NCBI GenBank assembly: GCA_018062825.1 | Contig: JAGORL010000001.1 | Span: 247,074-311,073 of the forward strand | Direction: 5' to 3' | Source: Patescibacteria group bacterium | Lineage (GTDB): Bacteria; Patescibacteriota; Patescibacteriia; UBA9934 | DNA length: 64,000 nucleotides | Shown here: piece by piece, positions 12,985 through 64,000 of the stretch | How positions within the stretch are numbered: the stretch's first letter is position 1 | Layout: each line of letters opens with the position of its first letter | The notes under the pieces: generated by a model | Database searches by the model: none | What the model was told of the DNA's origin: nothing | The model's input: the letters and a program-made list of their open reading frames with translations, nothing else | Translations under genes and position numbers: made by a program

Positions 12985-13371
12985 ATGCCTCCGGGAAAAC
13001 CGGGAATCTTTTTAGCGATGTGTGACCGCCGGTTGCGCGACATTCTCGCGGAACGGTTTTCGCTTGAAGGTTGGCGTAGTCAGGCGGGGGATAGCTTTCT
13101 TGATATCGAGCGCAAAGCAGCCCGCTTTCGCCCAACAGTGATCGTGATCGATTCGCAATGCGTTTCCAGTATTACCGATACCATTAAACGCGCTCGTTCA
13201 CTTCCAACGCTTTTAAAAACCCACATCCTGATTTACGCTCCTCATATGGAGCGCGAACAGATCGATGCCGTGCTGACCGCGGGAGCACAAAGTGTGCTGC
13301 TTGCTACGCATATCACCGCCAAGGATGTAATTAACGCTGCCAAAGACCTGTTAAAGCCGGGTCGGGTATAA
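12985..13371 (+). CDS. degenerate CheY-like receiver (REC) domain protein
   Basis: PTVIVIDSQC occupies the phospho-acceptor Asp position, but the conserved T/S and K are not obvious. It sits inside the pilus block where PilN/PilO would be expected. Confidence 0.4.
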   Translation: MPPGKPGIFLAMCDRRLRDILAERFSLEGWRSQAGDSFLDIERKAARFRPTVIVIDSQCVSSITDTIKRARSLPTLLKTHILIYAPHMEREQIDAVLTAGAQSVLLATHITAKDVINAAKDLLKPGRV

Positions 13372-13380
13372 TAGCCGCAT

Positions 13381-13866
13381 ATGCAAAGGATGGAAGTATT
13401 GATCGTCGGGTTACTCATTGGTGCCATCGGGCTTGTCTCTGGGCTTTCAGTCATGGGAGCTCGTGCTCGCTTGCGAGACGTCACGCGCCTGGCGCATGTG
13501 CGTGAATTACAGATGGGTCTAGAGTTTTCGTTTGCTAACCGCGGTACCTATCCAGTTGTTACTACACCAATTGCGCTTGGTGAGGCGCGCACTATTTGTT
13601 TAAGTGCAAACGGGTTTAACCCGCCATGCGGAGAGAACGAGGTACCATACATTGAGTTCGTGCCAGCGCCACCAAGCGCGGGCTTGTCTGGCAAGGCTGC
13701 ATGTGACGGCGTGCGCAATGGCTATTGTTACGCCTCAGATGGGGAGTCATTCCGCATCACTTTTGAACTTGAAAAAGCCAACCGTCAGCTTGGTCTGCCA
13801 AAGGGTGCCAACTGTGCTACGGAAAATGGCATAACCCCTGGCGTTTGTCAGGCTTTTGCGCAGTAG
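13381..13866 (+). CDS. type IV pilin-like protein with an atypical N-terminus
   Basis: Begins MQRMEVLIVGLLIGAIGLVSGL, a hydrophobic alpha1-N-like segment with Glu at position 5 but no G|F cleavage motif. C-terminal Cys pair CATENGITPGVC. Confidence 0.5.
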   Translation: MQRMEVLIVGLLIGAIGLVSGLSVMGARARLRDVTRLAHVRELQMGLEFSFANRGTYPVVTTPIALGEARTICLSANGFNPPCGENEVPYIEFVPAPPSAGLSGKAACDGVRNGYCYASDGESFRITFELEKANRQLGLPKGANCATENGITPGVCQAFAQ

Positions 13867-21677: not shown

Positions 21678-21730
21678 ACCCCGCGCCGTTTTCCCTGGAA
21701 TGGGTTGATGCAGCGCGGGGTTTGTGTTTC
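21678..21730 (+). terminator. rho-independent terminator after the dsbA-like gene
   Basis: ACCCCGCGC...GCGCGGGGT stem followed by TTTGTGTTTC. Confidence 0.65.
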
Positions 21731-21756
21731 TATACAGGCAAACAATTAGCTATCCT

Positions 21757-22434
21757 ATGGATCAAACAACACAACCAGCACCACAGGGACAGAAGAAAGG
21801 CCTTTCCACCTCAACCAAAGTAATCATTGGTGTCTTGGTTGCCATGGTACTTTTCGGCATGCTCGCCATTATTGGCGGCGCTATTGTGATAATGGTCGTG
21901 GCTAAGAATATCAAGGAAGCCAACATGGACAGCTACACGTACTCAGATTGGGAGTACACATCCTATGATGACGCCTCTACATCCTGGACCCCGTACACGG
22001 ACACCTTCGGTCGTTTCAGCGGTAGCTTCCCAGCCTACCCAACATATGAAACGGATAGCACGCCAATCACTGGCTCTGACGTTTTAGTATGGTACGACAT
22101 GTACTCCAGTGAAGATCTTGATGGCTACTACAGCATCACGGTCTCTGAGTATCCAGTAGAGATCGATCTTGGTGAGCCAGAAGCAAACTTGAACAATGCT
22201 CTTGATGGCTTGTTGGCTTCAACCGGTGCAAGTCTCGTTACCTCTGGGTTTGAAAGCGTGGAGGGAAACACGGCGCTTTATTACCTAGCCTCTACAAGCG
22301 ACGGCATTTACCTTGAGGGTAAGTCGATCGTGCAGGGCCAAGTGCTCTACCAGCTCATGGTAGCGTATGAAGATGAGGCCGCTTCCGCAGAAGGCCGTGA
22401 ACAGTTCTTCAGCTCCTTTGAACTCAATCAGTAG
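21757..22434 (+). CDS. hypothetical single-TM protein with a Y/T/S/D-rich extracytoplasmic domain
   Basis: TM segment VIIGVLVAMVLFGMLAIIGGAIVIMVV. ATG at 21757; ORF track starts at GTG 21724. Confidence 0.5.
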   Translation: MDQTTQPAPQGQKKGLSTSTKVIIGVLVAMVLFGMLAIIGGAIVIMVVAKNIKEANMDSYTYSDWEYTSYDDASTSWTPYTDTFGRFSGSFPAYPTYETDSTPITGSDVLVWYDMYSSEDLDGYYSITVSEYPVEIDLGEPEANLNNALDGLLASTGASLVTSGFESVEGNTALYYLASTSDGIYLEGKSIVQGQVLYQLMVAYEDEAASAEGREQFFSSFELNQ

Positions 22435-22447
22435 AATAGTCACTAGC

Positions 22448-22479
22448 AAAATAACCCCTCGTGGGGTTATTTTGTTTTT
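22448..22479 (+). terminator. rho-independent terminator (AAAATAACCCC tcgt GGGGTTATTTT)
   Basis: Perfect stem followed by a T-tract. Confidence 0.75.
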
Positions 22480-22537
22480 CGCGTACTTCGGGTACTGTAC
22501 CGCCGGCTACTGACAAACACCCGACCGTGAGGTTGCA

Positions 22538-23377
22538 ATGACGCCACAAGACCGACACTTCCGACAGCTCCTCGAGGAGCGCTGGTCGGCCGGCAAGTTC
22601 GTCTGCATTGGGCTCGATACGGATCCCGACAAGGTTCCTGAGGTCGTCGTCCGAGAGCCGGATGACCCGCACGCCTTCCTAGCCTTCAACAAGGCCATCA
22701 TCGAGGCAACTGGTGACATCGCTGGCGCCTTCAAGTTCAACAGTGCCTTCTACGAAGCGCACGGCGTCGCTGGCCTCATGGGGCTGCGTGACAGCATCAG
22801 GACGGCTCACCGCATCGCGCCCGGCGTACCGGTGATCCTCGACGCCAAGCGCGCCGACATCGACAATACGAACAGCGGCTACGTGCGCTTCGCCTTCGAC
22901 ATCATGCAGGCAGACGCCATCACGGTGAGTCCGTACCTCGGCCGCAAGGCGCTCAAGCCATTCCTCGAGTGCAAGAACAAGGGAATCTTCGTGCTGTGCC
23001 GTACGTCCAACGACGGCGCCGGCGAGTTCCAGGATCTCGAGTGCGGCGGCCTGCCGCTCTACGTGCACGTGGCTCGCAAGGTCGCCACGACCTGGAACGA
23101 GAACGGCAACTGCGGCGTGGTCGCTGGCGCAACGCGCCCGAGTGAACTCGCTACCGTTCGCTTCCAGGTCAACGATCTGCCGATCCTCATCCCTGGCATC
23201 GGGGCTCAGGGCGGGGACGTGGAAGCGACCGTCAAGGCCGGCAAGTGCTCGCGCGGCCGTGGCATGCTCGTGAACTCCTCACGTGGCATCATCTACGCTT
23301 CCTCGGGCAATGACTTCGCGAACGCTGCCCGCCTGGAAGCCCTGCGCCTGCACGAACTCATCACGAGCTTCCTGTAG
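22538..23377 (+). CDS. pyrF: orotidine 5'-phosphate decarboxylase (type 2), GC-rich islet
   Basis: DAKRADIDNT and GIGAQGGD motifs. About 65% GC with GC3 bias; GAGG ribosome-binding site. Confidence 0.85.
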   Translation: MTPQDRHFRQLLEERWSAGKFVCIGLDTDPDKVPEVVVREPDDPHAFLAFNKAIIEATGDIAGAFKFNSAFYEAHGVAGLMGLRDSIRTAHRIAPGVPVILDAKRADIDNTNSGYVRFAFDIMQADAITVSPYLGRKALKPFLECKNKGIFVLCRTSNDGAGEFQDLECGGLPLYVHVARKVATTWNENGNCGVVAGATRPSELATVRFQVNDLPILIPGIGAQGGDVEATVKAGKCSRGRGMLVNSSRGIIYASSGNDFANAARLEALRLHELITSFL

Positions 23378-23419
23378 CAGGCACCGCAACCGACCCCTAC
23401 GCGGGTCGGTTTTCTGTTT
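23357..23419 (+). repeat. direct repeat copy A (pyrF 3' end plus terminator hairpin AACCGACCC..GGGTCGGTT)
   Basis: About 88% identical to 24175..24236. The hairpin arms are conserved; differences are confined to the loop and a 2-nt indel. Confidence 0.7.
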
Positions 23420-23447
23420 AAAAATATCAGCAATTAGTAGAAAATTA

Positions 23448-23476
23448 TTGACAAAATGCCAATTTTATGCTAATAT
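23448..23476 (+). promoter_or_regulatory. near-consensus sigma70 promoter TTGACA-17-TAATAT
   Basis: AT-rich spacer. Drives the GC-rich membrane-protein gene, whose ATG at 23540 has GGAGAGG upstream. Confidence 0.6.
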
Positions 23477-23539
23477 ATTGTGTCTTTATTGACCTTTCGG
23501 CGCCATCAGCCGACTGAGAAACACAGAAGGAGAGGCGCC

Positions 23540-24166
23540 ATGATCGCGCTGATCGTCAAGGTGCTATTCTGGTCAGTCTTCGCCACCATCCTGGCCTGCC
23601 TGGAGATCGAGAGCGAAGGGAAGTACGGGTGGGCGCACAAGGCGCCGACCTGGTACCGCACCACCGGGTTCTTCGGGAAGCTGTACGGCATGATCATGGG
23701 CGGCAAGCCGCTCACCGGCTACCACCTGTTCATGTTCCTCTTCACCTTCATGATCTTCCACGTTCCGTTCTTCTCGGGCGTGGTGTGGTCGGCCGAGGGC
23801 GAGCTTCTCGCCTGCGCGATGTACTTCGCCTGGTGCACGCTGTGGGACTACATCTGGTTCGTGTTGAACCCCGCCTACGCTGGTCGATTCACGCGCAACA
23901 ACGTGTGGTGGCACTCCGGAAGCCCCTGGATCTTCGGACTGTTCCCGCTCGACTACCTGTCGGGCGTCACGCTCTCCTTGGGTCTCGCTGGAGCCGCCGC
24001 CTGGCACTCGGGAGAAGCTCAGCTCTTCGTCGATCACCTCGCGGTCCTCATCGGATTCGGGGCCTACGTCGCACTCATGCACTTGTGCGCGCCCGCCTAC
24101 CGCTACTGGTATGGCTACATGCGCCTGAGTGATGACCGCGACAAGGTCGACATCGTCTATCCCTGA
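23540..24166 (+). CDS. hypothetical integral membrane protein (about 208 aa, W/F/Y-rich TM helices), GC-rich
   Basis: ATG with GGAGAGG 5 nt upstream; ORF track starts at 23480. High GC3 bias. Confidence 0.55.
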   Translation: MIALIVKVLFWSVFATILACLEIESEGKYGWAHKAPTWYRTTGFFGKLYGMIMGGKPLTGYHLFMFLFTFMIFHVPFFSGVVWSAEGELLACAMYFAWCTLWDYIWFVLNPAYAGRFTRNNVWWHSGSPWIFGLFPLDYLSGVTLSLGLAGAAAWHSGEAQLFVDHLAVLIGFGAYVALMHLCAPAYRYWYGYMRLSDDRDKVDIVYP

Positions 24167-27386: not shown

Positions 27387-28703
27387 ATGACCATCGCCAA
27401 GCACCGCAGCATATTTTACGCCCTGCTCACCAATGCCCTTGTTGTTGTTGTCACAAACTCGTTCGTCTGGTTTGCGGTGACTTTCTGGGTGTATTTGGAG
27501 ACGCGATCAGTTATCGCTACGTCACTTATCGCCGGCATGTATACCGTAGCTAATGCGGTGTCAGCACTTTTTTTTGGCGCGCTCGTGGATCATAATAAAA
27601 AGAAGACGGCCATGGTCTTCTCGACCGTCATCTCGTTTATCGCTTATGCCGCCGGGCTCATTATTTTGCTCGCCGCCGGCTCTGATCGTTTTACAGACAT
27701 CACCTCGCCAGTTTTGTGGGTCTGGGTCGGGCTCCTCCTTTTTGGTTCGATCATCGGTAATATTCGCACCATCGCCTTATCAACAACGGTGCCAGTGCTT
27801 TTTGAAGAGAAGGATCGGGGTCAGGCCAACGGTCTCATTGGCACAACAAACGGCATTGCCTTTGCTATCACGTCAGTTGCTAGCGGTATTGTGATTGGTT
27901 TCTTTGGTATGGATATCGCGCTCATGGTGGCGGTGCTGTGTATGGCGCTTGCTATCGTGCACCTATCGTTTATCAAAATCCCAGAGCCAGAAATCGTTGT
28001 CGATCATGCTAAGCCTCGCCGCGTTGATCTGTGGGGAACGTTCAAAGTTGTTCGTGCCATACCGGGATTGCTAGCACTTATTTTCTTCACCACGTTTAAC
28101 AACTTTCTTGGGGGAGTATTCATGGCGCTCATGGATGCTTACGGGTTGTCTCTCGTGTCCGTGCAGGCTTGGGGTCTTATGTGGGGCGTGTTAAGCACGG
28201 CGTTTATTGCAGGTGGCTTACTGATTGCTAAATTTGGACTTGGCAAAAATCCACTACGAACCATGATCATGATTAACATGATCACCTGGAGTGTTTGTAT
28301 CTTCTTCACCATTCAAGAGTCGATCGTGCTTACAGCGATCGGTCTTTTTACCTGGATGATCTGCGTGCCGTTTATTGAGGCTTCTGAGCAAACAATTCTG
28401 CAAGGCGTTGTGCCACAAGAACGCCTAGGACGCGTGATTGGTTTTGCGCAAAGCGTTGAATCAACCGCATCACCGGTAACAACCTTGTTCATCGGGCCGC
28501 TAACGCAGTGGTTCTTCATCCCATTCATGACAACCGGTGCTGGCGTTACCCTCATTGGTGGTTGGTTTGGAGTGGGGGATGCTCGTGGTATTGCGCTCGT
28601 GTTCACCGTTGCCGGCATTCTTGGACTCACCGTAACTCTCGCTGCACGCTTTTCGGCTTCGTACCGCCGTTTGTCACATACGATTGCTACCACAATGAAG
28701 TAA
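27387..28703 (+). CDS. MFS transporter
   Basis: 12-TM topology with MFS-like loops. Confidence 0.85.
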   Translation: MTIAKHRSIFYALLTNALVVVVTNSFVWFAVTFWVYLETRSVIATSLIAGMYTVANAVSALFFGALVDHNKKKTAMVFSTVISFIAYAAGLIILLAAGSDRFTDITSPVLWVWVGLLLFGSIIGNIRTIALSTTVPVLFEEKDRGQANGLIGTTNGIAFAITSVASGIVIGFFGMDIALMVAVLCMALAIVHLSFIKIPEPEIVVDHAKPRRVDLWGTFKVVRAIPGLLALIFFTTFNNFLGGVFMALMDAYGLSLVSVQAWGLMWGVLSTAFIAGGLLIAKFGLGKNPLRTMIMINMITWSVCIFFTIQESIVLTAIGLFTWMICVPFIEASEQTILQGVVPQERLGRVIGFAQSVESTASPVTTLFIGPLTQWFFIPFMTTGAGVTLIGGWFGVGDARGIALVFTVAGILGLTVTLAARFSASYRRLSHTIATTMK

Positions 28704-28708
28704 AAAAA

Positions 28709-28744
28709 GACCCGAACGGTTCGCAGGTGTGCGTCGTTCGGGTC
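28709..28744. terminator. hairpin GACCCGAACG...CGTTCGGGTC with a 16-nt loop
   Basis: Preceded by an A7 tract, which gives a U-tract for the minus-strand gene ending at 28743. May also act on the + strand MFS transcript. Confidence 0.5.
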
Positions 28745-29330
28745 AGCGCGTCGGCAGTTCGCTAATGCGCTGCAGGAGTTCCAAGAGATCGTCAGGCCGC
28801 TCGTAGGCATCCGGCATCGCGATCTCGATTGCGATCGGGTCATGCACGAGCGACTGGTGGCTGATCAGCCAGCTCGGCGGATCATGAGAGTCCGTGCGAG
28901 TCGGTGTGATGATCTTCGTGATGCGTTCGGGGCGATCGAATCGTCCACGCTTCTTCGCCGTTGCGATCTGCGAGGCGATCGAATCATCCACACTGTGGGC
29001 CGGCAGTACCCCGCGGATGAAGTCCGCATTCGGCAGGAGTCGGCGCACATAGAAGCGCAGGCACGTAAGCGGATAGCCGCGTGCCAGCACGGCTGCGCAC
29101 ACCGGATCAAGTTCCGGCGTGTGCTGACCAAGTTCCGGAGCGCTGACTACCAGCTTGCGCATGCTCGCCGTACTGTGACGAATCTGCACCGTGCCACGGA
29201 ACTGGCTGATGTAGTCAGGTACGCCCGCGGTCGTGGTGCGCAGGAGGTAGCGACAGCGGTTTACGATCGCCACCATCATGAAGCTCTGACCATCGGCGTG
29301 TTCGCAGATGATCTCGATCGCAATATCCAT
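28743..29330 (-). CDS. hypothetical protein, GC-rich, with possible 2H-phosphoesterase-like H-x-[ST]-x motifs (RHSTA, SHQSL)
   Basis: ATG with GGAGG 4 nt upstream; about 60% GC. The motif assignment is tentative. Confidence 0.45.
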   Translation of the reverse strand: MDIAIEIICEHADGQSFMMVAIVNRCRYLLRTTTAGVPDYISQFRGTVQIRHSTASMRKLVVSAPELGQHTPELDPVCAAVLARGYPLTCLRFYVRRLLPNADFIRGVLPAHSVDDSIASQIATAKKRGRFDRPERITKIITPTRTDSHDPPSWLISHQSLVHDPIAIEIAMPDAYERPDDLLELLQRISELPTR

Positions 29331-29500
29331 GAGGCCTCCAAGAAGAAGGGACGCAAGCGGACTCTAGCAAGAGAAGCGCAGGATGAAAAGAGTGCTCCCT
29401 TGCAAGAGGTACCAAGAAGTCTGTATAAAAAGGCGGATTCTATAGGGATCTTGCCGTTCTTAAGTGGACGAGCTAGCATGCCAAGGCCTAGGGGGAGTAC

Positions 29501-30097
29501 ATGCCAAAGAAGCTGCTCATCACCGGTGGACCGGGGGGTGGAAAGTCAACCATCATTCGTAGCCTCAAGGAGGAGTTCGAGGGACGTATTGTGTGCGTCC
29601 AGGAGGCAGCAACGCTGCTGCTCGCTACCGGCTTCCCGCCGCCTGGCGAGTCACCGCACCCGGATGATCTTGTTGCCTTTCAGCGCAAGATCTTCACGAC
29701 CATCATGGACCTCGAGTATCACGCCATGAGCTACGCGACACGTGAAGGCATTCCGCTCGTCGTGTGCGACCGCGGTCTCCTCGACGGGGAGGCCTACATG
29801 AACAGCCGTGAGGAGTTCATGCGCACGGTCGGCATCACGGATCGCGCGATGTTCCTGAATGGCTACGACGAAGTGCTCTACGTGGAATCGCCGGCGCCTT
29901 CTGCAGACTTCGTCTGGTCGCGCACGGCGGGCAACGAACACCGCATGGAGCACGATCGCTCCATCGCAGCCAAGATCGAAGGTCGGACTTGGGAAGCATG
30001 GCGCGATCACCCCAAGATCCGCCACATTCCTCACACCTGGGGGTTTCAAGGAAAGGGCGTCATCGTTCGTGCCCGCGTCCTCGAGCTCCTGGAGTAA
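29501..30097 (+). CDS. P-loop NTPase of AAA_28 / NadR-kinase-like type, GC-rich
   Basis: ITGGPGGGKST Walker A, EAAT, and VVCDRGLLDGEAY are typical of AAA_28 kinases. GGGGGAG ribosome-binding site. Confidence 0.55.
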   Translation: MPKKLLITGGPGGGKSTIIRSLKEEFEGRIVCVQEAATLLLATGFPPPGESPHPDDLVAFQRKIFTTIMDLEYHAMSYATREGIPLVVCDRGLLDGEAYMNSREEFMRTVGITDRAMFLNGYDEVLYVESPAPSADFVWSRTAGNEHRMEHDRSIAAKIEGRTWEAWRDHPKIRHIPHTWGFQGKGVIVRARVLELLE

Positions 30098-34110: not shown

Positions 34111-34198
34111 GGAGAGGTCGCATAGTGGCCTAGTGCGCACGCTTGGAAAGCGTGTGAATCGAAAGGTTCCGAGAGTTCGAATCTCTCCCTCTCCGCCA
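34111..34198 (+). tRNA. tRNA-Ser (anticodon GGA)
   Basis: Acceptor GGAGAGG/CCTCTCC, anticodon loop TTGGAAA, long variable arm, T-loop TTCGAAT and an encoded CCA. A small terminator hairpin follows (CTCAC..GTGAG plus T-tract). Confidence 0.85.
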
Positions 34199-34293: not shown

Positions 34294-34845
34294 TTAGTTG
34301 TGGGGGCGGGGCGGCAGGAGTATGTCAGCCCAGGAAAAGAGCGCGAGCTGCGCGGGATCGATGACCGTGATGGCATCGAAGCCCTGCGACAGCTCGACGT
34401 GTTGGCGGTGGAAGAGTCGGTAATCACGACGGCAGCCCTCCTCGACAGCACGGCGGCTAAGTTTCGTCGGCTGCTCGCGCGCCAGGAATTGTCGCACAAC
34501 TAAGTCTTCCGACGTCACGAAGTGCCAACCCTCAATCTCGTCCGCCCCAAGCCCGCGCAAGAGTTTAGCAATCATCACACGTTCCTGCGCGAACCCGTTC
34601 CACATATCTAGAATCAGTATCGCATTTTCCCGTTGTAGTAGTATCCCTACACGCTCGAAGAGCACCTGAGCGGCATAGGCATGTTCGCCCTGATAAGGGC
34701 TGAGCATGGTGGCGCCAAACAGTTCACGCAGAATTGCGTCACGTTCGATTAGTGCCACATCTGACCTCCGGGCGAGAACCTCCTGACACAGGGTACTTTT
34801 TCCGGCTCCACGTGGGCCAATCGTCAAAATGACCTTCTTCATCAT
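34294..34845 (-). CDS. P-loop kinase-like protein (AAA_33/zeta/PNK-like), GC-rich, next to the 3' end of tRNA-Ser
   Basis: Walker A GPRGAGKST and hydrophobic-strand-Asp ILILD. GAGGG ribosome-binding site; about 62% GC. Confidence 0.55.
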   Translation of the reverse strand: MMKKVILTIGPRGAGKSTLCQEVLARRSDVALIERDAILRELFGATMLSPYQGEHAYAAQVLFERVGILLQRENAILILDMWNGFAQERVMIAKLLRGLGADEIEGWHFVTSEDLVVRQFLAREQPTKLSRRAVEEGCRRDYRLFHRQHVELSQGFDAITVIDPAQLALFSWADILLPPRPHN

Positions 34846-35617: not shown

Positions 35618-36304
35618 ATGAAAGCCGTCATCCTTGCCGCTGGTAAGGGTGCACGCCTTCGTCCACTCACTGATTACGTACCAAAGCCGCTTCTGGACGT
35701 TGGCGGTGCGCCACTGATTACCCGCACACTCATGAGTTTGCCTCGGGCTGTCACCGAGATCCATATCGTTGTCGGCTACATGGGCGAGAAGATACTCACC
35801 GCACTCGGCGGCCATTTTGCTGGTCGACCGATTTTTTATCATCAGCAAGAAACATTGAACGGAACCGGGGGCGCCATGATGCTTTTGAAGGATGTTATCG
35901 ACGGCCCGACACTTATTTTAAATGCTGACGACCTATACTCCGGAGATGACCTAGCTCGTTTATCAGAATATCCGCTCGCTATTCTTGCGAAAGAGCGCAC
36001 CCGTGGTACCGTGCCTAATCCATTGTCCGTGCGTCACGGTTTTCTAAATGGTTTCGCACGTTTGCCGCAGCATCAGTACGCGCCACTGGAAAATTGTGGC
36101 GCTTACCTTGTCGATAAACGTTACTTTTCAGTGCCGCCGGCTATGATTCAAGTGCGTGATCAGATGGAGTACAGCCTGCCGCACGCTTTTGTTGAACTTG
36201 CGAAAAATGAACTCGTGAGCGTCGTTCGAGCAACGTTTTGGATGCCGGTTGGCACACCGGAACAGCTCGCGGTCGCAAGAGACCTCGTAAACCTTGGGAG
36301 ATAG
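35618..36304 (+). CDS. sugar-phosphate nucleotidyltransferase (NTP_transferase family)
   Basis: N-terminal AVILAAGKGARLRPLT signature. Confidence 0.8.
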   Translation: MKAVILAAGKGARLRPLTDYVPKPLLDVGGAPLITRTLMSLPRAVTEIHIVVGYMGEKILTALGGHFAGRPIFYHQQETLNGTGGAMMLLKDVIDGPTLILNADDLYSGDDLARLSEYPLAILAKERTRGTVPNPLSVRHGFLNGFARLPQHQYAPLENCGAYLVDKRYFSVPPAMIQVRDQMEYSLPHAFVELAKNELVSVVRATFWMPVGTPEQLAVARDLVNLGR

Positions 36305-36351: not shown

Positions 36352-37218
36352 ATGCCAGCAGCCAATTTTCATAAAGATGACCTGCGGGACTGTGCAGCGC
36401 TTGTTAAAAAGACCAAAGAACGAGCTTTTTTTGCTGTTAAATTTCTACCAAAAGACGCAAGAGATGCGGTTTTAGTCCTACGAGCCTTTGTGCACATCGC
36501 CCTGTCTCATAAAGATGCGGGCGATGCGCAGAAGCTCGCCATCTTCAAGGATGCCTGGCGCGCGGCTCTTATCTCAGCCCCACCGATAAGCATTCCAGCG
36601 GCTTGGTTCTCGGTCTTGCGTGCCACAAGTGAGGTATTCCGTGTTTATAAAATTAGCGCCGCGGAAGGAGACCTCTTTTTTACCGCCTTAGAAAAAGATT
36701 TAGATCGTGGTTTGTGTGTGCCGCAATCTGATATCGATGAGATTGAGGCGGGTATGGCAGCGATTGGTCGCATGTTCGCTAAAGCCGTGCAGTGTGAGGA
36801 TGAGCGCGGCGTAATCGCCTGCGGAGAGGTTGCGCGTGCCATGTATCGCACCGAGAGTCTTGTGCGGTTTGAAGCGAGCGTAGTAAAGCATCGTCGCGTT
36901 TCCATGAGTGTTGAGATGTGTAGATCAGTAGGGGTTGAAGACGAGCACGTAACTGCCGGTCGAGTATCACCGGAACTCATAGCGCTGTTCAAGAAACACA
37001 TTTTTGAAACCCGTCAGATCTATCGTGGTGCTGAACGCGCGCTTGCACTACTTCCCATGGGATCATCCCGAGCGGCGCGTGTTATTGCCGCAATATACGA
37101 ATCAAAACTTGATCGCGTTGTTGCACAAAAATACGATGTCTTCCATGGAGCTCGCAAGCCATCCATCACTATGCGTCTACTTGTGTCTATTCGTCTCTGG
37201 ATACGTTTACGCGGCTAG
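36352..37218 (+). CDS. squalene/phytoene synthase-family protein with degenerate Asp-rich motifs
   Basis: FFAVKFLPKDARDAVLVLRAF resembles the CrtB/HpnD N-terminus. The expected ADDIVD motif is replaced by SHKDAGD and the second DxxxD region is also altered. Confidence 0.6.
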   Translation: MPAANFHKDDLRDCAALVKKTKERAFFAVKFLPKDARDAVLVLRAFVHIALSHKDAGDAQKLAIFKDAWRAALISAPPISIPAAWFSVLRATSEVFRVYKISAAEGDLFFTALEKDLDRGLCVPQSDIDEIEAGMAAIGRMFAKAVQCEDERGVIACGEVARAMYRTESLVRFEASVVKHRRVSMSVEMCRSVGVEDEHVTAGRVSPELIALFKKHIFETRQIYRGAERALALLPMGSSRAARVIAAIYESKLDRVVAQKYDVFHGARKPSITMRLLVSIRLWIRLRG

Positions 37219-37271
37219 CCTGGACGCAACAAAACCCGTCGATTCGTCGTTTGCACGACAAGTGACGGGTT

Positions 37272-37712
37272 TTACGTTTGGTGACGCGCTCGCAGCGCAA
37301 CCACCAGGTCCGCGACAATCGGGATGAGTCGATTCACAATCGGCGCCATGAGAAGCGACGTGAGAAAGGTGACCCCGATCGCCTTCGGCAAGTTCGCGGC
37401 CGGCGTCAGGAAAACGACGATCGACGTGAAGGTCGTCGTTTGAGCGACGGCGTACGTGACGCCGCGCACAAAATCCTGACGCATCGTGTGTTCACCACCG
37501 AACCTGTCGACGGCATACGTAGCGATGCGCGTGTAGTACACGCCTAGCCACGTTTTCACAATGATGAGTCCGAAGGCAGCGATCACTGACGCCTGGCCGC
37601 TAAGGCCGGCGAGGTAATAGTTCTTCAGGACCACGAGAAGTGCCCCAAAGAAAAACACCAGTGCGCCAGCGGTCTTGCTGCCGTCACCGGGTTGGTAGGG
37701 GAGTTTTGGCAC
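37272..37712 (-). CDS. hypothetical 4-TM membrane protein, GC-rich
   Basis: GTG start with AAGGAGA upstream; ORF track TTG at 37742. About 60% GC. Confidence 0.5.
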   Translation of the reverse strand: MPKLPYQPGDGSKTAGALVFFFGALLVVLKNYYLAGLSGQASVIAAFGLIIVKTWLGVYYTRIATYAVDRFGGEHTMRQDFVRGVTYAVAQTTTFTSIVVFLTPAANLPKAIGVTFLTSLLMAPIVNRLIPIVADLVVALRARHQT

Positions 37713-37747
37713 GAAAGTCTCCTTGGAAAGAGCGACGTGCAAGGGTA

Positions 37748-38254
37748 CTAGATTTGAGTACGTTTTGCAATAGCAAGACGAGCCTCAGGATCGGCTTCGG
37801 CGTACTCTTTGAGCTTATGTAAAAGAATGCGAGGGGTACTAGCAACGGTGAAGTTGAGATACGTCATGATGGCTTTCAGAAGCCAGTGCTTTGGCGTGAT
37901 GGTGAGTTCATGCGTCAGTCGTGAGCCATCTCTTTCGCGTGTCATGACATAGCGACTTGTCGAGGACGAATGATCGCTCTCGGCTGTATAGGAGAACTCA
38001 ATCCCCGGTGAGGCGATAAGCACTTTGCCAGTACTCATGATTTTCGCTGAGGAGCCGCCGTGAAAGCGATCATTATCAACGCTAAAACGAAAAGTTGAGC
38101 CGCTCTCAACGTCACCATCCCATTCCCAGTGCACGAGGGTATACATCCAGCCGCGTATATGCGTTGGATCAGTTAGAAGTTCATATACCTGCTGTGGCGG
38201 AAGATTAATGAAGATGGAGTTCGTGTAGGTTCGATACATAGTGTGTACAGGCAA
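37748..38254 (-). CDS. SRPBCC-superfamily protein (polyketide cyclase / AHSA1-like)
   Basis: Size and N-terminal pattern (INLPPQQVYELLTDP..GW) fit the SRPBCC fold. Confidence 0.55.
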   Translation of the reverse strand: MPVHTMYRTYTNSIFINLPPQQVYELLTDPTHIRGWMYTLVHWEWDGDVESGSTFRFSVDNDRFHGGSSAKIMSTGKVLIASPGIEFSYTAESDHSSSTSRYVMTRERDGSRLTHELTITPKHWLLKAIMTYLNFTVASTPRILLHKLKEYAEADPEARLAIAKRTQI

Positions 38255-38301
38255 CTATATAAAGGCGTTTGTTTCCTTTATGATGCCAGAGACTTTTACG
38301 T

Positions 38302-39090
38302 ATGGCTATTAAAAATGAACTCTGGGTGCTGGGTGTCGGGTGTGGGGTACTAGGCCTATTAGGTTTTATGTCAGGGCAGGCGCCGCTTCCAAGTGCGTTC
38401 TCTTGGCTGCCGATCATAAGCGTTGTTCTCTTAGCGCTACCTGGATACTTCGCCTTTGTGTCAGACGCCGGTGACAAGCGTGGGGGAGCGGTGCTTATCA
38501 TGCTCGCCCTTGTTGGGCTAGGTATTGAGTACATCGGTGTTACTACCGGTTGGCCGTACGGAACCTTTGCTTACAGTGAGGTGATGGGCGAGAAACTTTT
38601 TGGCGTCGTTCCGTGGACTGTAGCTTTCGCTTGGCCGCCACTTGTTCTTGGTGCGCTGTACGCTGTGAAGTCTATTAACCATTGGCCGCTTGCTGTGCGC
38701 GCTTTGCTTGCTGCACTTCTTTTAGTGGTGATCGATCTAGCCCTTGATCCAGCAGCCGTAGCTCAAGCATTTTGGACCTTTACACCACCGGGGCCATATT
38801 ACGGTGTACCGTGGGTGAACTACGCTGGTTGGCTATTGAGTGGCTTTATTGGAAGCGCCTTGGCGCTGAGTGTGATTAAAAAGAGCGCGCACCACCTGTC
38901 TTGGCGCACAGCCTCAAGTGCAGTCTTATCGATCGCATTCTTTACGGGTGTAAATGCGTCGTATGGTCTGTATGTTCCTATGCTTGTTGGTTTGCTGTTG
39001 ATCGCTGCCTTTTTCTTTGTTCAAGGGAAACGTTTTGTTCGCATCTATGCACATCTCGCAGCTCGCAAGGCACAGCAGGGCCAGAAATAA
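38302..39090 (+). CDS. COG2324 / DUF422-type carotenoid-biosynthesis membrane protein (CruF-like)
   Basis: Multi-TM protein with GWPYGTFAYSE and GVPWVNYAGW motifs. Confidence 0.55.
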   Translation: MAIKNELWVLGVGCGVLGLLGFMSGQAPLPSAFSWLPIISVVLLALPGYFAFVSDAGDKRGGAVLIMLALVGLGIEYIGVTTGWPYGTFAYSEVMGEKLFGVVPWTVAFAWPPLVLGALYAVKSINHWPLAVRALLAALLLVVIDLALDPAAVAQAFWTFTPPGPYYGVPWVNYAGWLLSGFIGSALALSVIKKSAHHLSWRTASSAVLSIAFFTGVNASYGLYVPMLVGLLLIAAFFFVQGKRFVRIYAHLAARKAQQGQK

Positions 39091-40405
39091 GCACGCCATC
39101 GGTGACGGCCCAATCGTGTACTGGATGAATCGTGAACTGCGCTCCAAAGAGAACGCAGCGCTTTTGTACGCGCAAGAAATTGCCATTGAACACAAGCGGC
39201 CTCTCATTGTCGTTTACAATCTAGTTGCAAATTATCTCGGTGGCGGTACTCGGCAATTTGATTTTAAAACATCATCATTTACTGAACTGCACGAAGCGTT
39301 CGCAGTAAAAGAGATCCCGTGGCACGTCATTGTCGGTGAAAGCGAAGAGCTGATTACCTTCTTCACTAAGCATAACGCCGGCGCTGTTATAACTGACATG
39401 TGCCCACTACGCATTTCGCAAAAGTGGGTGAGTGCAATTGCAAAAAAGATGCCGGTTGCGGTTATTGAAGTGGACGCACACAACATCGTGCCTGTCTGGA
39501 CTGCATCTTCTAAGCAGGAATTCGCAGCCCGCACGCTGCGCCCCAAGCTTCATAAGCTCTTGCCTGACTACCTGATCGAACTCCCTCCGTTACGCAAACA
39601 CCCATTTCCAGCGCCTGGAGCGCCATATCATGACGCCGTGATTAAAAAGCTCCGTGCTCCTCTGAAAGAGATGATGCCGGTGTCATTTATTTCAGGAGAG
39701 AAGGCTGCGCATAAGGCTCTACAGGATTTTTTAAAGCATCGACTCATAGGTTACGCAGAGCGTCGCAACGATCCAACCAAAGATGGTATCTCCCATCTGT
39801 CACCATACTTGCACTACGGCATGATTGCGCCACTGACGGTAGCGTTAGCTGTTCGTGGGGCTGATGCGCCACGCGCTGACAGGGATGCGTATCTTGAAGA
39901 ACTCATTGTGCGCCGCGAGCTCGCTGATAATTTCTGTTTTTACAATCCGTACTACGATAGCGCGGAAGGATTTCCTAATTGGTCCAAAGCAACACTTGAT
40001 CAGCATGCTAAAGACAAACGAGACAGTCTCTACTCGTACATGCAATTTGAGAAATCACAAACACATGACCCATTGTGGAACGCAGCGCAGCGGCAAATGG
40101 TGCAGTCGGGAAAGATGCACGGTTACTTGCGTATGTACTGGGCAAAGAAGATCTTAGAATGGACGCCATCAGTTGCAGAAGCAATGCGCATCGCAATTAA
40201 ATTGAACGATACGTATGAACTTGATGGTCGTGATCCAAACGGGTACGTAGGAATTGCGTGGTCAATTGGTGGCGTGCACGATCGTGCATGGTTTCCGCGA
40301 CCAATTTTTGGCACAGTGCGTTACATGAGTGCAAATGGGTGTGCAAGTAAGTTTGATGTTGATGCATACATTGCACATTGGAGTGGCGTGCAGAAACTCA
40401 TGTAG
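39047..40405 (+). CDS. phr: deoxyribodipyrimidine photolyase, class II
   Basis: GPIVYWMNRELR N-terminus and GKMHGYLRMYWAKKILEW FAD-binding signature. Start overlaps the previous gene by about 44 nt; ORF track starts at 39017. Confidence 0.9.
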   Translation: MHISQLARHSRARNKHAIGDGPIVYWMNRELRSKENAALLYAQEIAIEHKRPLIVVYNLVANYLGGGTRQFDFKTSSFTELHEAFAVKEIPWHVIVGESEELITFFTKHNAGAVITDMCPLRISQKWVSAIAKKMPVAVIEVDAHNIVPVWTASSKQEFAARTLRPKLHKLLPDYLIELPPLRKHPFPAPGAPYHDAVIKKLRAPLKEMMPVSFISGEKAAHKALQDFLKHRLIGYAERRNDPTKDGISHLSPYLHYGMIAPLTVALAVRGADAPRADRDAYLEELIVRRELADNFCFYNPYYDSAEGFPNWSKATLDQHAKDKRDSLYSYMQFEKSQTHDPLWNAAQRQMVQSGKMHGYLRMYWAKKILEWTPSVAEAMRIAIKLNDTYELDGRDPNGYVGIAWSIGGVHDRAWFPRPIFGTVRYMSANGCASKFDVDAYIAHWSGVQKLM

Positions 40406-40482
40406 CGTACCTGTTGATGAATAGGCTTGTGATGTACGCGCATCGCACATATGATGAGTGAGACTTGTCATCACAAAAAACT

Positions 40483-40968
40483 ATGCGCATTACCTCACCA
40501 GCGTTTCGCAATGGAGAGAAGATCCCACCACAGTTCACCTGTGATGGCGACGACGTCAATCCAGAATTGCGAATCACTGGCACGCCAGCGAGTGCAAAGA
40601 GCGTAGTTATCATTGTTGATGACCCAGCTTCACCAAGTGGTAACTGGTTGCACTGGAGCTTGTGGAATCTTGATCCAAAAATTTCCATCATTGAGGAGGA
40701 TAGCGTGCCGCGCGGCGCCGTACTGGGGGAGACTGATTTTTCTGAAGTCGGGTATGGTGGTCCGTGTCCAAGTTACGGAGAGCATGAATATCGCTTCATG
40801 GTCTTTGCCCTTGATACCACGCTTGCGTTGGCTGAGGGCGCACCACGCCACATTTTAGAAGCTGCCATGGACGGTCACATTATTGATGAAGCCTCGCTTA
40901 CCGGTCGCTACCAGCGCGTAAAGAAAGAACCCCGTGTCTCCAAAAAACGAGCAACTGTTAAGGCTTAG
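40483..40968 (+). CDS. YbhB/YbcL-family Raf-kinase-inhibitor-like (PEBP) protein
   Basis: FTCDGDDVNP, DPASPSG.W.HW and YGGPCP.G.H.Y.F motifs. Confidence 0.85.
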   Translation: MRITSPAFRNGEKIPPQFTCDGDDVNPELRITGTPASAKSVVIIVDDPASPSGNWLHWSLWNLDPKISIIEEDSVPRGAVLGETDFSEVGYGGPCPSYGEHEYRFMVFALDTTLALAEGAPRHILEAAMDGHIIDEASLTGRYQRVKKEPRVSKKRATVKA

Positions 40969-52657: not shown

Positions 52658-52711
52658 GAAAAAAAAGACCCATGCGCAAGCCTGGGTCTTTTGCTACACT
52701 ACGGTGAACGT

Positions 52712-53881
52712 ATGAATGATAAAGTATTTTACAGTAAACTACAGGCTCGGCATGTGTCATTGCAAGAGATTTTGAAGAACCCAAGCTGGTTTCAGGATGT
52801 TCCGGCTGATTGGTGGGTGATCGTCACCGACATTCAAGGTTCAACAAAAGCCATGGAGGCTGGCCGGGGAAAAGATATCGGTACAATTGCCGGCAGCTGC
52901 GTGATCGCATGTTTGAATATTGCCAAGCAACTCAAGATTGATGTGCCATTTTTCTATGGTGGCGATGGTGCAACATTTATTGTGCCAGGAGCGTGCGTAG
53001 AGCAGATGGTAGCGGCACTTAAGGATTTGCGAATGAACGTAGCGAAAACCTACGGCTTACCGCTCAGAGTCGGAGCGGTGCAGGTACAGAAAATTTATGA
53101 TCAAGGCGTTCAATTAAGACTGGCAAAGTGGTCAGTAGCGCCTGGATACTTACAGGCAGTAGCGCTCGGTAATGGGCTACCAATGGCGGATAAGCTCATT
53201 AAAGCCGAGCGTGGCGACAAGGGTGACGATATGCCTGCCATGGGAAAGGTGGATCTTGAAGGATTGATGTGCCGCTGGAATGCAATCGATCCAAAAGAGC
53301 CGCGAGAAGAGGTGGTGTGTGTGATTCTTGAGGCTACAGAAGTTGCAAAACAGGGCGAGGTATATGCCAAGGTCATTGATCTTATTGATGATATCTACGG
53401 CTCGTATCACGATCGTCACCCAGTGCAAAAACAGATGATGACTCCGGCGGTAAGTTGGCCAGGCATTGCGCGACGTGAAAAACTCGGGAGCGGTCGGCGC
53501 TTGTCCTTGCGTATGTTTGATGAAGCAGCACGCGCTATGATGCATGCGGTTATTTTCCGCTTTGGCTTGCGTATTGGTAGCTTTGAGCCAGCAGAGTATC
53601 TGCGCCAACTCATGCTCGCAACCGATACGTTGCACGTTGGCGGAACCATGCACACCATTATTTCCGGAACCGCAGAGCAGCGCCGAAAGCTGCGTGAGGC
53701 GCTGGATACGCTTGAGGTAGACAAAGAGATACTATACGGACTTGCCGCTTGCCCATCTTCAGTTATGACGTGTTACGTGCAGCGCCTTGATGAAGGCGGT
53801 CATATGCACTTTGTTGATGGTGCGGGTGGGGGATACACGCTCGCGTCACGCGAGTGGAAAGCAAAACGCGTAACCAAGTAA
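52712..53881 (+). CDS. hypothetical protein, possibly DUF3095-like with a nucleotidyl-cyclase-like N-terminus
   Basis: WVIVTDIQGSTKAME resembles the class III cyclase FADIVGFT region. The family assignment is from memory and uncertain. Confidence 0.4.
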   Translation: MNDKVFYSKLQARHVSLQEILKNPSWFQDVPADWWVIVTDIQGSTKAMEAGRGKDIGTIAGSCVIACLNIAKQLKIDVPFFYGGDGATFIVPGACVEQMVAALKDLRMNVAKTYGLPLRVGAVQVQKIYDQGVQLRLAKWSVAPGYLQAVALGNGLPMADKLIKAERGDKGDDMPAMGKVDLEGLMCRWNAIDPKEPREEVVCVILEATEVAKQGEVYAKVIDLIDDIYGSYHDRHPVQKQMMTPAVSWPGIARREKLGSGRRLSLRMFDEAARAMMHAVIFRFGLRIGSFEPAEYLRQLMLATDTLHVGGTMHTIISGTAEQRRKLREALDTLEVDKEILYGLAACPSSVMTCYVQRLDEGGHMHFVDGAGGGYTLASREWKAKRVTK

Positions 53882-55453: not shown

Positions 55454-55894
55454 ATGGGAAGTAAAATAGCGCTACCTACCGTAAAAATTGGCAAATACGC
55501 AATTAAACGCAAACGCGGTTTATCAGGCTTGGGTCTTTTTGCGTTAGAGGCAATTCCAAAAGGCGAGTATGTGGTGGAGTACTGGGGGCGCATGTTGAAT
55601 GATGCCGAGGCTCAGCAAACTGGCGGTAAGTACCTTTTTGAACTCAGCAAGCATCGAACGATCGACGGTTCATCGCGGGATAATCTAGCGCGTTATATCA
55701 ACCACGCCTGCCGACCAAATTGTGAAATTGAGATCAAGAAAGGTCGCGTGCTCATCTTCTCAAAGAAGGCAATCAAAGCCGGTGAAGAATTAACCTACGA
55801 TTACGGTAAAGAGTACGTTGACGAATTCATTAAGCCTTACGGATGCCGGTGCGCCACCTGTGCCGCGAAGAAACAAAAAACTCCCACCGCCTAA
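55454..55894 (+). CDS. SET-domain protein (putative protein-lysine N-methyltransferase)
   Basis: SET signatures NHACRPNC and ELTYDY, plus a C-terminal Cys cluster CRCATC (post-SET-like). Confidence 0.8.
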   Translation: MGSKIALPTVKIGKYAIKRKRGLSGLGLFALEAIPKGEYVVEYWGRMLNDAEAQQTGGKYLFELSKHRTIDGSSRDNLARYINHACRPNCEIEIKKGRVLIFSKKAIKAGEELTYDYGKEYVDEFIKPYGCRCATCAAKKQKTPTA

Positions 55895-55911: not shown

Positions 55912-56541
55912 TTATTCAGCGCTCTCGCCGGCGTTAGCCTGGGCGATGATTGCGTTCAACGTTGTAAGAATGGTATCGAGCTTAGCATTAATTGCTGCAA
56001 GCTCTGCACTAGTGTTGCCACCAGTTGCCTGTTCAGCACGAGGTGCTGAGTAGCTTGGTGTTTCCTGACGCTCACCTGCACCTGCTCCTGCTCCTTCACC
56101 ACCGGTGAAGCAAGGCTTGCAGTAAACTGGGCGAGTGCCCATTGGGCGGAAAGGAACTTCACAGCGTGTTCCGCAAGAGCTGCACTCCGTGTTGAACATC
56201 TGCTTCTCTTCACGGTCTCCGTACGAAGGGCGTGAGAATGAGCTTGAACGCTCTTCGCCACCGCCTTCATTCTTGAAACAATCACGGCAGTAAACCGGGC
56301 GACCCTGCGTAGGACGGAACGGTACGCGGCAAGCGTTACCACAACCAGCACACGTAGCATCATGAAGGTCTGGACGAGCGGCATCGCGATCAGCGCTACC
56401 ATTGCTCCAAGCTCCACGACCACCAACACCACCCTTATGACCACCAAAGCGGTTACCACCACCACCGAACTTTTTACCACCAAAACCACCACGGCTCTTA
56501 TAGCCACCACTTGAACGATCGTCGCGAGAGAAATTCTTCAT
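55912..56541 (-). CDS. Gly/Arg-rich protein with two tandem CxxCG...PFRP...RPVYCxxC zinc-ribbon modules
   Basis: N-terminal RGG/GGF low complexity; CAGCGNACRVPFRPTQGRPVYCRDC and CSSCGTRCEVPFRPMGTRPVYCKPC; C-terminal helical tail. Confidence 0.6.
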   Translation of the reverse strand: MKNFSRDDRSSGGYKSRGGFGGKKFGGGGNRFGGHKGGVGGRGAWSNGSADRDAARPDLHDATCAGCGNACRVPFRPTQGRPVYCRDCFKNEGGGEERSSSFSRPSYGDREEKQMFNTECSSCGTRCEVPFRPMGTRPVYCKPCFTGGEGAGAGAGERQETPSYSAPRAEQATGGNTSAELAAINAKLDTILTTLNAIIAQANAGESAE

Positions 56542-61993: not shown

Positions 61994-62527
61994 CTAACCA
62001 GCATTTTCAGCGATTTCTTTGAGTGCAGCAAGACCGCGATCAAAATCTTTCTGAAGAGCCTTCTCCATGCTAAAAAGAACCGCAAAGATTTTCATGGTGA
62101 ACGGATTGGTGCCAGTCATAATCCAGGTAACGCGAGTGCCGCCTGCTTCCGGAGTGAATCTGAAAGTTGTTTGATTCATCGCTTCAAATGGTTTGATGAA
62201 CTGAAGATCGATCTTGATTTCATTTGGCGCATCACTCGAGGTGATCGTCATCTTTCCCTCGCCAACCTTACCGTTACCAGACCAGCTATAGGTTGCGCCA
62301 GTGCCGTGTGATGGCTCGCTATACTCTTTCTTCATGGAGTCATCCATCTTTTCCCAAGGAGACCAAGCTTTCCAAGCTTTGAAATCATTGATATGCGTAA
62401 AGATTCTTTCAGCAGACGCGTTTATGACGATCGATCGTTCATAACGAAAGTCATTTGGAAGCGTGGCGACATAGCCAAGAAAGACAATGCCGGCAAAGAG
62501 TAGTGCAATAAAGAGTGCGAGAAGCAT
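61994..62527 (-). CDS. membrane-anchored SRPBCC-family protein
   Basis: N-terminal TM segment (LLALFIALLFAGIVFLGYV) followed by an SRPBCC-like domain. Internal ATG chosen; ORF track extends to 62638. Confidence 0.5.
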   Translation of the reverse strand: MLLALFIALLFAGIVFLGYVATLPNDFRYERSIVINASAERIFTHINDFKAWKAWSPWEKMDDSMKKEYSEPSHGTGATYSWSGNGKVGEGKMTITSSDAPNEIKIDLQFIKPFEAMNQTTFRFTPEAGGTRVTWIMTGTNPFTMKIFAVLFSMEKALQKDFDRGLAALKEIAENAG

Positions 62528-62624
62528 AATGATGTAATTTAGAAGTACTGTGAAAAACAGTACATTGTTTAAGTAATTAATAAAAGCGAGGCATTCGCTT
62601 TTTGGAAAGTGTTGAAAATGAAAA

Positions 62625-62647
62625 CCCAGACGCGCCATGCGTCTGGG
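62625..62647 (-). terminator. terminator hairpin CCCAGACGC gccat GCGTCTGGG
   Basis: Downstream of the minus-strand RCC1-like gene; followed by a T-tract on the minus strand. Confidence 0.65.
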
Positions 62648-62767
62648 TGTGGCTAAAGTTCAAGCAGGATATTTGTCGTAATTTGTCCTGGAGAACTTTA
62701 GTAGCGCTAGTGAGGGCAGAGCGTATGTTGAATCGCTCGAATGACACTCACTATGTGAAGGGATGAA

Positions 62768-63964: not shown

Positions 63965-64000
63965 GTCAATTTCCTCAAATGCGCATCACGTTATGATGCG

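Follow-up and report, generated by a model that had tools for sequence, protein, structure and literature searches.

The window analysed here is a 64-kb stretch of Patescibacteria DNA, to which all negative results given below for the window refer; it comes from a tiny, probably host-dependent bacterium and carries a small group of genes around a degenerate homologue of phytoene synthase. Genes were mapped with an open reading frame (ORF) map and with profile searches against Pfam and NCBIfam, and all five proteins described in an earlier note on this DNA (a synthase-like protein, an SRPBCC protein, a COG2324/CruF-type membrane protein, a photolyase and a PEBP protein) were found in place. A gene for a sugar-phosphate nucleotidyltransferase (NTP-transferase; 35618-36304, plus strand) marks the left border of what we describe below as an ancestral island. 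It is followed, after a gap of 47 bp, by the crtB-like gene (36352-37218, plus strand), whose product of 288 amino acids has the squalene/phytoene synthase (SQS/PSY) fold, scored 68 bits on PF00494 against a cut-off of 26 and is, in our reading, a CrtB-derived pseudo-synthase. The gap after this gene is 53 bp, and a perfect 10-nucleotide inverted repeat, or hairpin (37231-37273), lies between the crtB-like gene and a convergent gene for a small four-helix membrane protein (37272-37742, minus strand; maximal ORF of 156 amino acids); this sixth gene was not listed in the earlier note, and its product matched no family. Next is the gene for the SRPBCC protein (37748-38254, minus strand), a small ligand-binding protein of the Polyketide_cyc2/AHSA1 type according to Pfam, which is divergent from cruF (38302-39090, plus strand); the latter codes for a multi-pass membrane protein of 262 amino acids that is homologous to carotenoid 1,2-hydratase (PF04240, 151.7 bits). 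The gene for a class II cyclobutane pyrimidine dimer (CPD) photolyase of 452 amino acids extends from the ATG at 39047 to 40405 on the plus strand (TIGR00591, 548.7 bits; alternative starts at 39017 and 39125), and the PEBP/YbhB-family gene (40465-40968, plus strand; PF01161, TIGR00481) leads to dnaG, rpoD and, further on, bipA on the minus strand. Four further contigs of the clade (L001, L082, L083 and L086) have the same arrangement and, therefore, the neighbourhood is not due to chance.

The match of the synthase-like protein to PF00494 spanned model positions 2 to 260 of 263 and was above the gathering score, but all NCBIfam equivalog models for CrtB, HpnC and HpnD remained far under their cut-offs (16-46 bits versus 250-550); the best of them was HpnD with 46.3 versus 278.6 bits, and the CrtB models gave 16-38 versus 500-550 bits. 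The protein was then aligned using MAFFT with its orthologue of 83% identity and 24 other SQS_PSY sequences (26 sequences in total), and each of the 24 others was found to carry F-x-R-x-x-D-E-x-V-D and N-F-L-R-D-x-x-E-D. In the window protein, the first Asp-rich motif (D-[DE]-x-x-D, helix C) is gone and reads L51-S-H-K-D55 (LTLKD in the orthologue), with a Leu in the D51 column that is invariant in the 24 other sequences. The second (RDxxED) is gone as well and reads V171-R-F-E-A-S176 (VRYESG in the orthologue). The wider contexts are IALSHKD and SLVRFEAS in the window protein and IALTLKD and SLVRYESG in the orthologue, and the same loss was apparent in a pairwise alignment to the structure with PDB accession number 5iys. 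The earlier note had described the first motif as replaced and the second as altered, and both are indeed lost; the same note had allowed for motifs that are intact but shifted, and this was contradicted by the multiple alignment, in which LSHKD and VRFEAS sit on the motif columns. Moreover, 29 of the 49 columns conserved at ≥90% in the other sequences are replaced in the window protein, including R48H, D51L, Y131I, Q165Y, N168E, R171V, D172R, E175A, D176S, Y184S and R267A, whereas D55 and Y249 are kept. We take these columns to correspond to the catalytic positions R45, D48, D52, Y129, Q165, N168, R171, D172, D176, Y183, Y248 and R265 of CrtM from Staphylococcus aureus. On this assumption, 10 of the 12 catalytic positions are replaced (R45, D48, Y129, Q165, N168, R171, D172, D176, Y183 and R265) and two are kept (D52 and Y248), and the arginines changed in R48H, R171V and R267A would presumably be those that hold the diphosphate.

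Both motifs are kept in 97 of the 111 nearest family representatives in which both regions were aligned, and a few other lineages are degenerate too. An exhaustive HMMER scan of 1.84 billion cluster representatives gave only one close cluster (83% identity), and the next match had 29% identity. In the same family, we noticed an unrelated lineage without either Asp-rich motif: P0116 (L173, 278-1093, minus strand) has REVVS and RAVAFH instead, and its gene lies head-to-head with a second SQS_PSY gene (L173, 1225-2088, plus strand), possibly as an inactive/active pair; P0121 is similar to P0116. Twelve separate stretches of a protein of 3831 amino acids (P0010) aligned to residues 187-210 of the synthase-like protein with 53% identity, which is probably a repeat or low-complexity artefact rather than homology. 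Despite the replaced residues, the AlphaFold2 (AF2) model of the synthase-like protein had a pLDDT of 92.9 and a pTM of 0.90, albeit with an input alignment that consisted mostly of canonical enzymes and, thus, favoured the canonical fold. Foldseek placed it next to the CrtM-type structures 8is6, 5iys and 2zco with TM scores of 0.80-0.84. A "basic pocket" suggested by bulk charge was dropped as an idea, since pI and net charge are unremarkable overall and the pI of 9.55 lies within the family range of 5.3 to 9.7.

Comparison with the relative L172 gave 60 nucleotide differences and 7 amino-acid changes, i.e., a ratio of nonsynonymous to synonymous substitution rates (dN/dS) of 0.035 at an unsaturated dS of 0.31. 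Against L001, a relative with 80.6% nucleotide identity that is collinear over 8.7 kb, dN/dS was 0.04 to 0.10 depending on the method and, thus, level with that of neighbouring genes. Each of the three full-length copies (window, L001 and L172) has an uninterrupted ORF of 288 codons, and a partial C-terminal copy on L082 is open as well. The dS values of 0.31 and >1 argue against the sampled strains being one recent clone. The synthase-like protein is retained under strong purifying selection and is neither an ordinary CrtB nor the product of a pseudogene. This bears out the suggestion in the earlier note that the protein may be inactive or changed in its chemistry and may have been repurposed: it lacks both motifs, yet it is retained and not decaying.

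The origin of the gene became apparent from its relatives. P0004, the best non-orthologous match, has both motifs intact and lies on a 98.7-kb JGI contig on which the order is polyprenyl_synt, SQS_PSY, CrtI-type desaturase, hypothetical protein (minus strand), UbiA (minus strand), CruF, photolyase, SNase, PEBP, DnaG, RpoD and, further on, BipA (minus strand). In L167, the order is EVE, DUF5654, NTP-transferase, CrtE, CrtB, CrtI, UbiA (minus strand), photolyase, PEBP, a small DNA_binding_1 gene, DnaG, RpoD and, further on, BipA. The desaturase of L167 scored 625 bits on the model for the bifunctional CrtID, and its UbiA, which is lyeJ-like, scored 234.6 against a cut-off of 205 on the PRK12875 prenyltransferase model. 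L167 has no cruF, and a cruF remnant was not found by tblastn in its 589-bp gap. In L169, the order is PEBP-DnaG-RpoD-photolyase, and there are no carotenoid genes at the locus; in the stretch from 10001 to 12061, the photolyase gene follows rpoD directly and is itself followed by a gene for a Y1 transposase, which hints at relocation by a mobile element. Another arrangement of the same gene set, UbiA (minus strand)-CruF-lycopene cyclase-CrtID-type desaturase, was seen at 9117-13411 of a 942-kb JGI contig (L085).

The borders of the window locus match those of the relatives, with DUF5654 and the NTP-transferase on the left and PEBP-dnaG-rpoD on the right. Since the relatives carry crtE-crtB-crtI-ubiA(-cruF)-phr in this very slot, the window clade has lost crtE, crtI and ubiA. 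The crtE gene follows the NTP-transferase gene in L167 but is absent from that position in the window, and the identical borders together with the short gaps on either side of the crtB-like gene argue for a clean removal of crtE and crtI. In the window clade, two genes on the opposite strand, those for the membrane protein and the SRPBCC protein, stand in the position of crtI and ubiA. The earlier note had suggested looking for crtI, crtE or other genes of isoprenoid supply in the genome; in the window, a Pfam sweep of ORFs of at least about 140 amino acids found no polyprenyl_synt or other prenyl-diphosphate synthase such as CrtE, no Amino_oxidase/CrtI-family desaturase, no UbiA, no lycopene cyclase and no rhodopsin, and the sole isoprenoid-related gene was bacA (3660-4445). 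Two wider searches did not add to the picture: a scan of genome contigs with DnaG and its 10-kb flanks gave only relatives with 30-41% identity from many phyla and no synteny, and a scan of metagenome contigs with the photolyase alignment gave 80 generic class II photolyases (48-56% identity), none of them beside CruF, DnaG or PEBP, and missed the P0004 contig. The ancestral crtE-crtB-crtI-ubiA-cruF-phr island has been eroded differentially in this lineage of Patescibacteria, and the four states of the locus among relatives (complete, without cruF, window remnant, photolyase only) provide a clean natural example of island erosion in a reduced genome.

Divergence has been uneven. Identity between the window and L167 is 85% for RpoD, 80% for BipA, 65% for PEBP, 60% for the photolyase, 51% for DnaG and 50% for the NTP-transferase, but the crtB-like protein of the window has only 27% identity to CrtB of L167, its positional orthologue, while P0004 and CrtB of L167 share 56%. 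The photolyases of the three lineages are 57-62% identical in pairwise comparison. Measured against 22 other family sequences, the window protein has a mean corrected distance of 2.09, versus 0.98-1.00 for the positional orthologues; the crtB descendant is about twice as divergent as they are.

CruF of the window scored 151.7 bits on PF04240 against a cut-off of 25, but 142.4 versus 154.7 on TIGR03460 and 110.5 versus 300 on NF041333. It keeps 19 of the 19 invariant columns in an alignment of 17 sequences that included haloarchaeal CruF (among them E76, T82, G83, P85, G87, Y91, D145, W158, Y166, Y167 and N173), and the dN/dS of its gene is 0.054. By these residues, CruF appears intact and looks functional; an identical protein is annotated in NCBI as "carotenoid biosynthesis protein". 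Genes for a backbone or its elongation (crtI/crtD, lyeJ) are found nowhere in the 64 kb but are present on the P0004 contig and in L085. The photolyase matched TIGR00591 with 548.7 bits (E = 1.4e-164; model positions 19-453 of 453), which is 1.3 bits under the cut-off of 550.05, and is 54-60% identical to many annotated photolyases. The earlier note had the photolyase gene overlap the 3' end of cruF, and this holds with 44 nucleotides from the ATG at 39047, but its length varies with the start that is chosen: the TTG at 39017 would give 74 nucleotides and the ATG at 39125 no overlap at all, which is implied as the start by the NCBI protein of 426 amino acids (P0210). We favour 39047, because gene callers chose this start in three relatives, because the TIGR00591 match begins upstream of M27 and because the N-terminal peptide and the DNA from 39010 to 39066 are conserved down to a relative with 67% CruF identity. 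This piece of DNA, where cruF ends and the photolyase gene begins, is almost invariant across relatives, including synonymous sites, which suggests a dual-coding or translation-initiation constraint. Adjacency or overlap of the two genes is kept in L001, L082, L086 and on the P0004 contig, where a photolyase of 452 amino acids overlaps cruF by 4 nucleotides, and the SRPBCC-cruF-photolyase-PEBP arrangement extends to L086, whose photolyase is 76% identical. Translation of cruF and the photolyase gene is probably coupled.

The crtB-like gene does not share this unit. It is co-oriented with the NTP-transferase gene upstream, and since two minus-strand genes, one convergent and one divergent, lie between it and cruF, it is outside the cruF-photolyase operon. 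The inverted repeat at 37231-37273, probably a bidirectional terminator, separates the convergent genes, and therefore, the crtB-like gene is most likely part of the plus-strand unit that lies upstream, with cruF-phr as a separate unit. An operator-like inverted repeat was looked for in the divergent region between the SRPBCC gene and cruF, but none was found.

The two genes that occupy the place of crtI and ubiA are conserved as well. The membrane protein, called with 146 amino acids in relatives, was found in the window clade only; it had no Pfam match even at an E value of 10 and no NCBIfam match, is conserved in L001, L082, L083 and L172 with a dN/dS of 0.04-0.08, and was modelled from its single sequence by AF2 as four helices with low confidence (pLDDT 59.6). 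That it might be a remnant of UbiA was rejected, as there is no similarity. The SRPBCC protein (PF10604, 37.1 versus a cut-off of 27.4 bits; PF08327, 35.3 versus 22.1) is conserved in L001, L082 and L083 with a dN/dS of 0.09, and a truncated upstream minus-strand ORF of L086 matches its N terminus. A second SRPBCC protein (Polyketide_cyc2, 65.8 bits) with an N-terminal extension is encoded at 61994-62638 (minus strand); the two were considered as paralogues, but this was rejected in the absence of significant similarity. The earlier note had counted the PEBP protein (PF01161, 111.2 versus 24 bits; TIGR00481, 102.7 versus 57.75) as a member of the cluster, and this did not hold. In each of the relatives, whether or not pigment genes are present, its gene is found beside dnaG-rpoD: in L167 only the small DNA_binding_1 gene separates it from dnaG downstream, and in L169 dnaG follows immediately. 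Since this association holds even in L169, where carotenoid genes are lacking at the locus, the PEBP gene is not part of the light cluster.

Other parts of the window had features of their own. A gene for a P-loop kinase-like AAA_33 protein (34294-34845, minus strand) lies between tRNA-Ser (34111-34198) and a gene for a protein of 128 amino acids; it is absent from the collinear L001, where the tRNA directly precedes the latter gene, and is a strain-specific insertion or deletion beside a tRNA. A DUF3095 protein (316 bits) is encoded at 52691-53881 and a bacterial SET-domain protein at 55454-55894, both on the plus strand. The gene at 55912-56541 (minus strand) codes for two treble-clef zinc fingers (zf_Tbcl_2), and the same zinc finger occurs in a TrwB-like coupling protein (1771-3657). 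Three blocks are GC rich (22001-24000, 28001-30000 and 62001-64000; 0.56-0.59 versus a background of about 0.50), and the ORFs in them (21724-22434, 23480-24166, 28842-29729 and 62768-63964) had no Pfam match.

We interpret the region as an eroded light-protection island in which the crtB descendant is a repurposed, non-catalytic pseudo-synthase beside an intact-looking cruF and photolyase gene, and we give this interpretation a probability of roughly 60%. The original island would have combined synthesis of a bacterioruberin-type C40/C50 carotenoid with CPD photolyase, between the NTP-transferase gene and PEBP-dnaG-rpoD; crtE, crtI and ubiA were deleted in the window clade, with the membrane protein and SRPBCC genes in their place. 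The crtB descendant, which has lost both Mg2+-binding Asp-rich motifs, should no longer be able to condense two prenyl diphosphates into phytoene or dehydrosqualene and may survive by virtue of its helical prenyl-synthase fold and hydrophobic pocket, used non-catalytically, with the most likely role being the binding or handing over of a hydrophobic isoprenoid or lipid or the chaperoning of a membrane partner, for example CruF or the four-helix protein. CruF, in turn, may still act as a hydratase on the terminal isoprene unit of a carotenoid-like compound, which the host, or genes at another place in the genome, would have to supply. The earlier note had seen a photoprotection or pigment module here; the pigment and light-protection ancestry stands, but instead of an assembled module of five partners, the locus is the remnant of an island that is complete in one relative and nearly so in another.

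Several observations weigh against this interpretation. Our view is limited to 64 kb of a contig of at least 406 kb, and the remainder of the genome may contain crtE, crtI, lyeJ or another, canonical copy of crtB; in Patescibacteria from Lake Baikal, cruF is reported to lie far from lyeJ and crtD (PMC9948471). The neighbor-joining (NJ) tree, because of the very long branch of the window clade, puts this clade outside the others and not as sister to P0004 and L167, so the orthology to the resident crtB rests on position and on P0004 being the top distant match. Acidic residues near the old sites are conserved in both orthologues (D55, D58, D116, E168 and E174), and hence a remodelled metal site with new chemistry is conceivable. 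The N-terminal helix has a DDxxD-like string (D9-D10-L-R-D13); the segment aligned with it in the other family sequences is non-catalytic and variably acidic. The confident model owes something to the canonical input mentioned above. Finally, the functional tie of the crtB-like gene to CruF, as far as it can be read from gene order, would rest on conservation of the neighbourhood in one narrow clade, and the two genes appear to be in separate operons.

If crtE, crtI/crtD, lyeJ and a canonical crtB were all present elsewhere in the genome, the pathway would be complete and the degenerate copy would be a regulatory or otherwise non-catalytic partner, such as a heteromer subunit or a scaffold. 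The intact CruF would fit this, as would the scattered cruF and lyeJ/crtD reported for other Patescibacteria (PMC9948471), and the doubly degenerate P0116, which adjoins a second SQS_PSY on L173, suggests that inactive/active pairs exist; but no such gene lies within the window and the deletions at the ancestral locus are clean, so that we see this as a possible, if unlikely, state of affairs.

Alternatively, the protein may still be an enzyme, with a new chemistry that dispenses with the canonical trinuclear Mg2+ site. It might, for example, catalyze hydrolysis or transfer with an isoprenoid (di)phosphate as substrate, using a single metal ion or none, or it might act on a carotenoid; residues conserved in the clade that could do this work are R44, K54, D55, D58, E168, R172, E174, H180, R181 and R182. 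Purifying selection is as strong as on neighbouring enzymes, several new charged residues at the old active-site positions are identical in the orthologue with 83% identity, and the matches in PDB include non-canonical proteins with the SQS/PSY fold, i.e., YisP and the carbazole prenyltransferases LvqB4 and CqsB4. We nevertheless consider continued catalysis unlikely: both motifs are gone here, unlike in YisP, which presumably has its first, and the arginines that we take to hold the diphosphate are replaced (R48H, R171V and R267A). Moreover, we know of no precedent for catalysis by an SQS/PSY fold without either Asp-rich motif.

Two other explanations can be dealt with briefly. The loss of catalytic residues and of partner genes would suit a decaying relic, a functionless pseudogene-to-be with an ORF open by chance, but this is very improbable given the ORFs intact in window, L001 and L172 and open in the partial L082 copy, the 7 amino-acid changes among 60 nucleotide differences (dN/dS 0.035) and the confident AF2 fold. 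One could also point to the DDLRD string at residues 9-13 and to D55-x-x-D58 and argue that the protein is an ordinary, active CrtB with motifs that only seem lost because the alignment is out of register. This is hardly credible, since LSHKD and VRFEAS were put on the motif columns by MAFFT, phmmer-to-PDB and hmmalign alike, 29 of the 49 conserved columns differ and the NCBIfam CrtB/HpnD models gave 16-46 bits versus 250-550.

Returning to the repurposed pseudo-synthase, the question arises what the substrate of an intact CruF is once the backbone genes have left the locus, and this bears on the dependence of Patescibacteria on lipids and pigments of their hosts. One speculative answer, which we regard as rather improbable, is piracy of carotenoids or isoprenoids by an episymbiotic Patescibacterium that captures and tailors host-made carotenoids and, after deletion of crtE, crtI and the elongase, no longer builds its own polyene backbone. 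Equally speculative, the toolkit for this would consist of the silent CrtB-derived protein as isoprenoid binder, the SRPBCC protein as lipid carrier, the small membrane protein and an active CruF that is coexpressed with the photolyase to protect against light. A parallel would be offered by rhodopsins of Saccharibacteria, which, according to Jaffe et al. (2022) as cited in PMC9948471, were proposed to rely on host-derived retinal. Whatever its role, the crtB-like gene should not be annotated as phytoene synthase, nor should it be counted by tools that score pathway completeness.

How does the locus compare with known systems? With CrtB and CrtM (PF00494, Trans_IPPS_HH), the window protein shares homologous sequence and the fold, and its gene sits where crtB is found in the ancestral crtE-crtB-crtI cluster, but it differs in the loss of both Asp-rich motifs, in the lack of crtE and crtI at the locus and in an identity of only about 27% to the positional orthologue. 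The lyeJ-crtD-cruF cluster of haloarchaea, Arthrobacter and Baikal Patescibacteria likewise joins a UbiA-type prenyltransferase, a CrtI/CrtD-type desaturase and CruF, as do the loci of the relatives; the window keeps CruF but is without lyeJ/ubiA and the desaturase, and its cruF overlaps the gene of a class II photolyase and is paired divergently with that of an SRPBCC protein. Bacterioruberin-type lyeJ, crtD and cruF genes have been reported in Patescibacteria of Lake Baikal (PMC9948471), and therefore, the presence of pigment genes in Patescibacteria is not new in itself, although the earlier note had called it unexpected in a reduced genome. Physical linkage of carotenoid and photolyase genes is also found in light-protection loci of non-phototrophs, a comparable one being the carotenoid genes and photolyases that flank heliorhodopsins; in the window, a LitR/CarH-type regulator or operator was not seen and the pigment half is largely deleted.

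Closer to the pseudo-synthase itself are proteins that kept the fold and gave up the reaction. YisP of Bacillus subtilis (PDB accession number 3we9), a farnesyl-diphosphate phosphatase, has a degenerate SQS/PSY fold and does not catalyze head-to-head condensation, and the similarity of the window protein to 3we9 is weak (E = 0.025, TM score of 0.72). We assume that YisP keeps the first Asp-rich motif and is without only the second; since both are gone in the window protein, the mechanism of YisP is unlikely to apply to it. NDUFAF6 and NDU1 are proteins with the SQS/PSY fold but without both DxxxD motifs (PMC8007014). Like these mitochondrial complex I assembly factors, the latter from Candida albicans, the window protein has the fold without DxxxD, is kept by selection and has a presumed non-catalytic role at the membrane; unlike them, it is derived from a bacterial crtB in a carotenoid island and, thus, of independent origin, and no link to a respiratory complex is visible. 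Since synteny points to descent from a resident bacterial crtB, we propose an analogy and not a membership. A search of the available literature gave no report of a bacterial CrtB-derived pseudo-synthase. The gene in the window would be such a case, an enzyme that escaped deletion by a change of function and is now under strong selection, as an independent bacterial parallel to the eukaryotic NDUFAF6.

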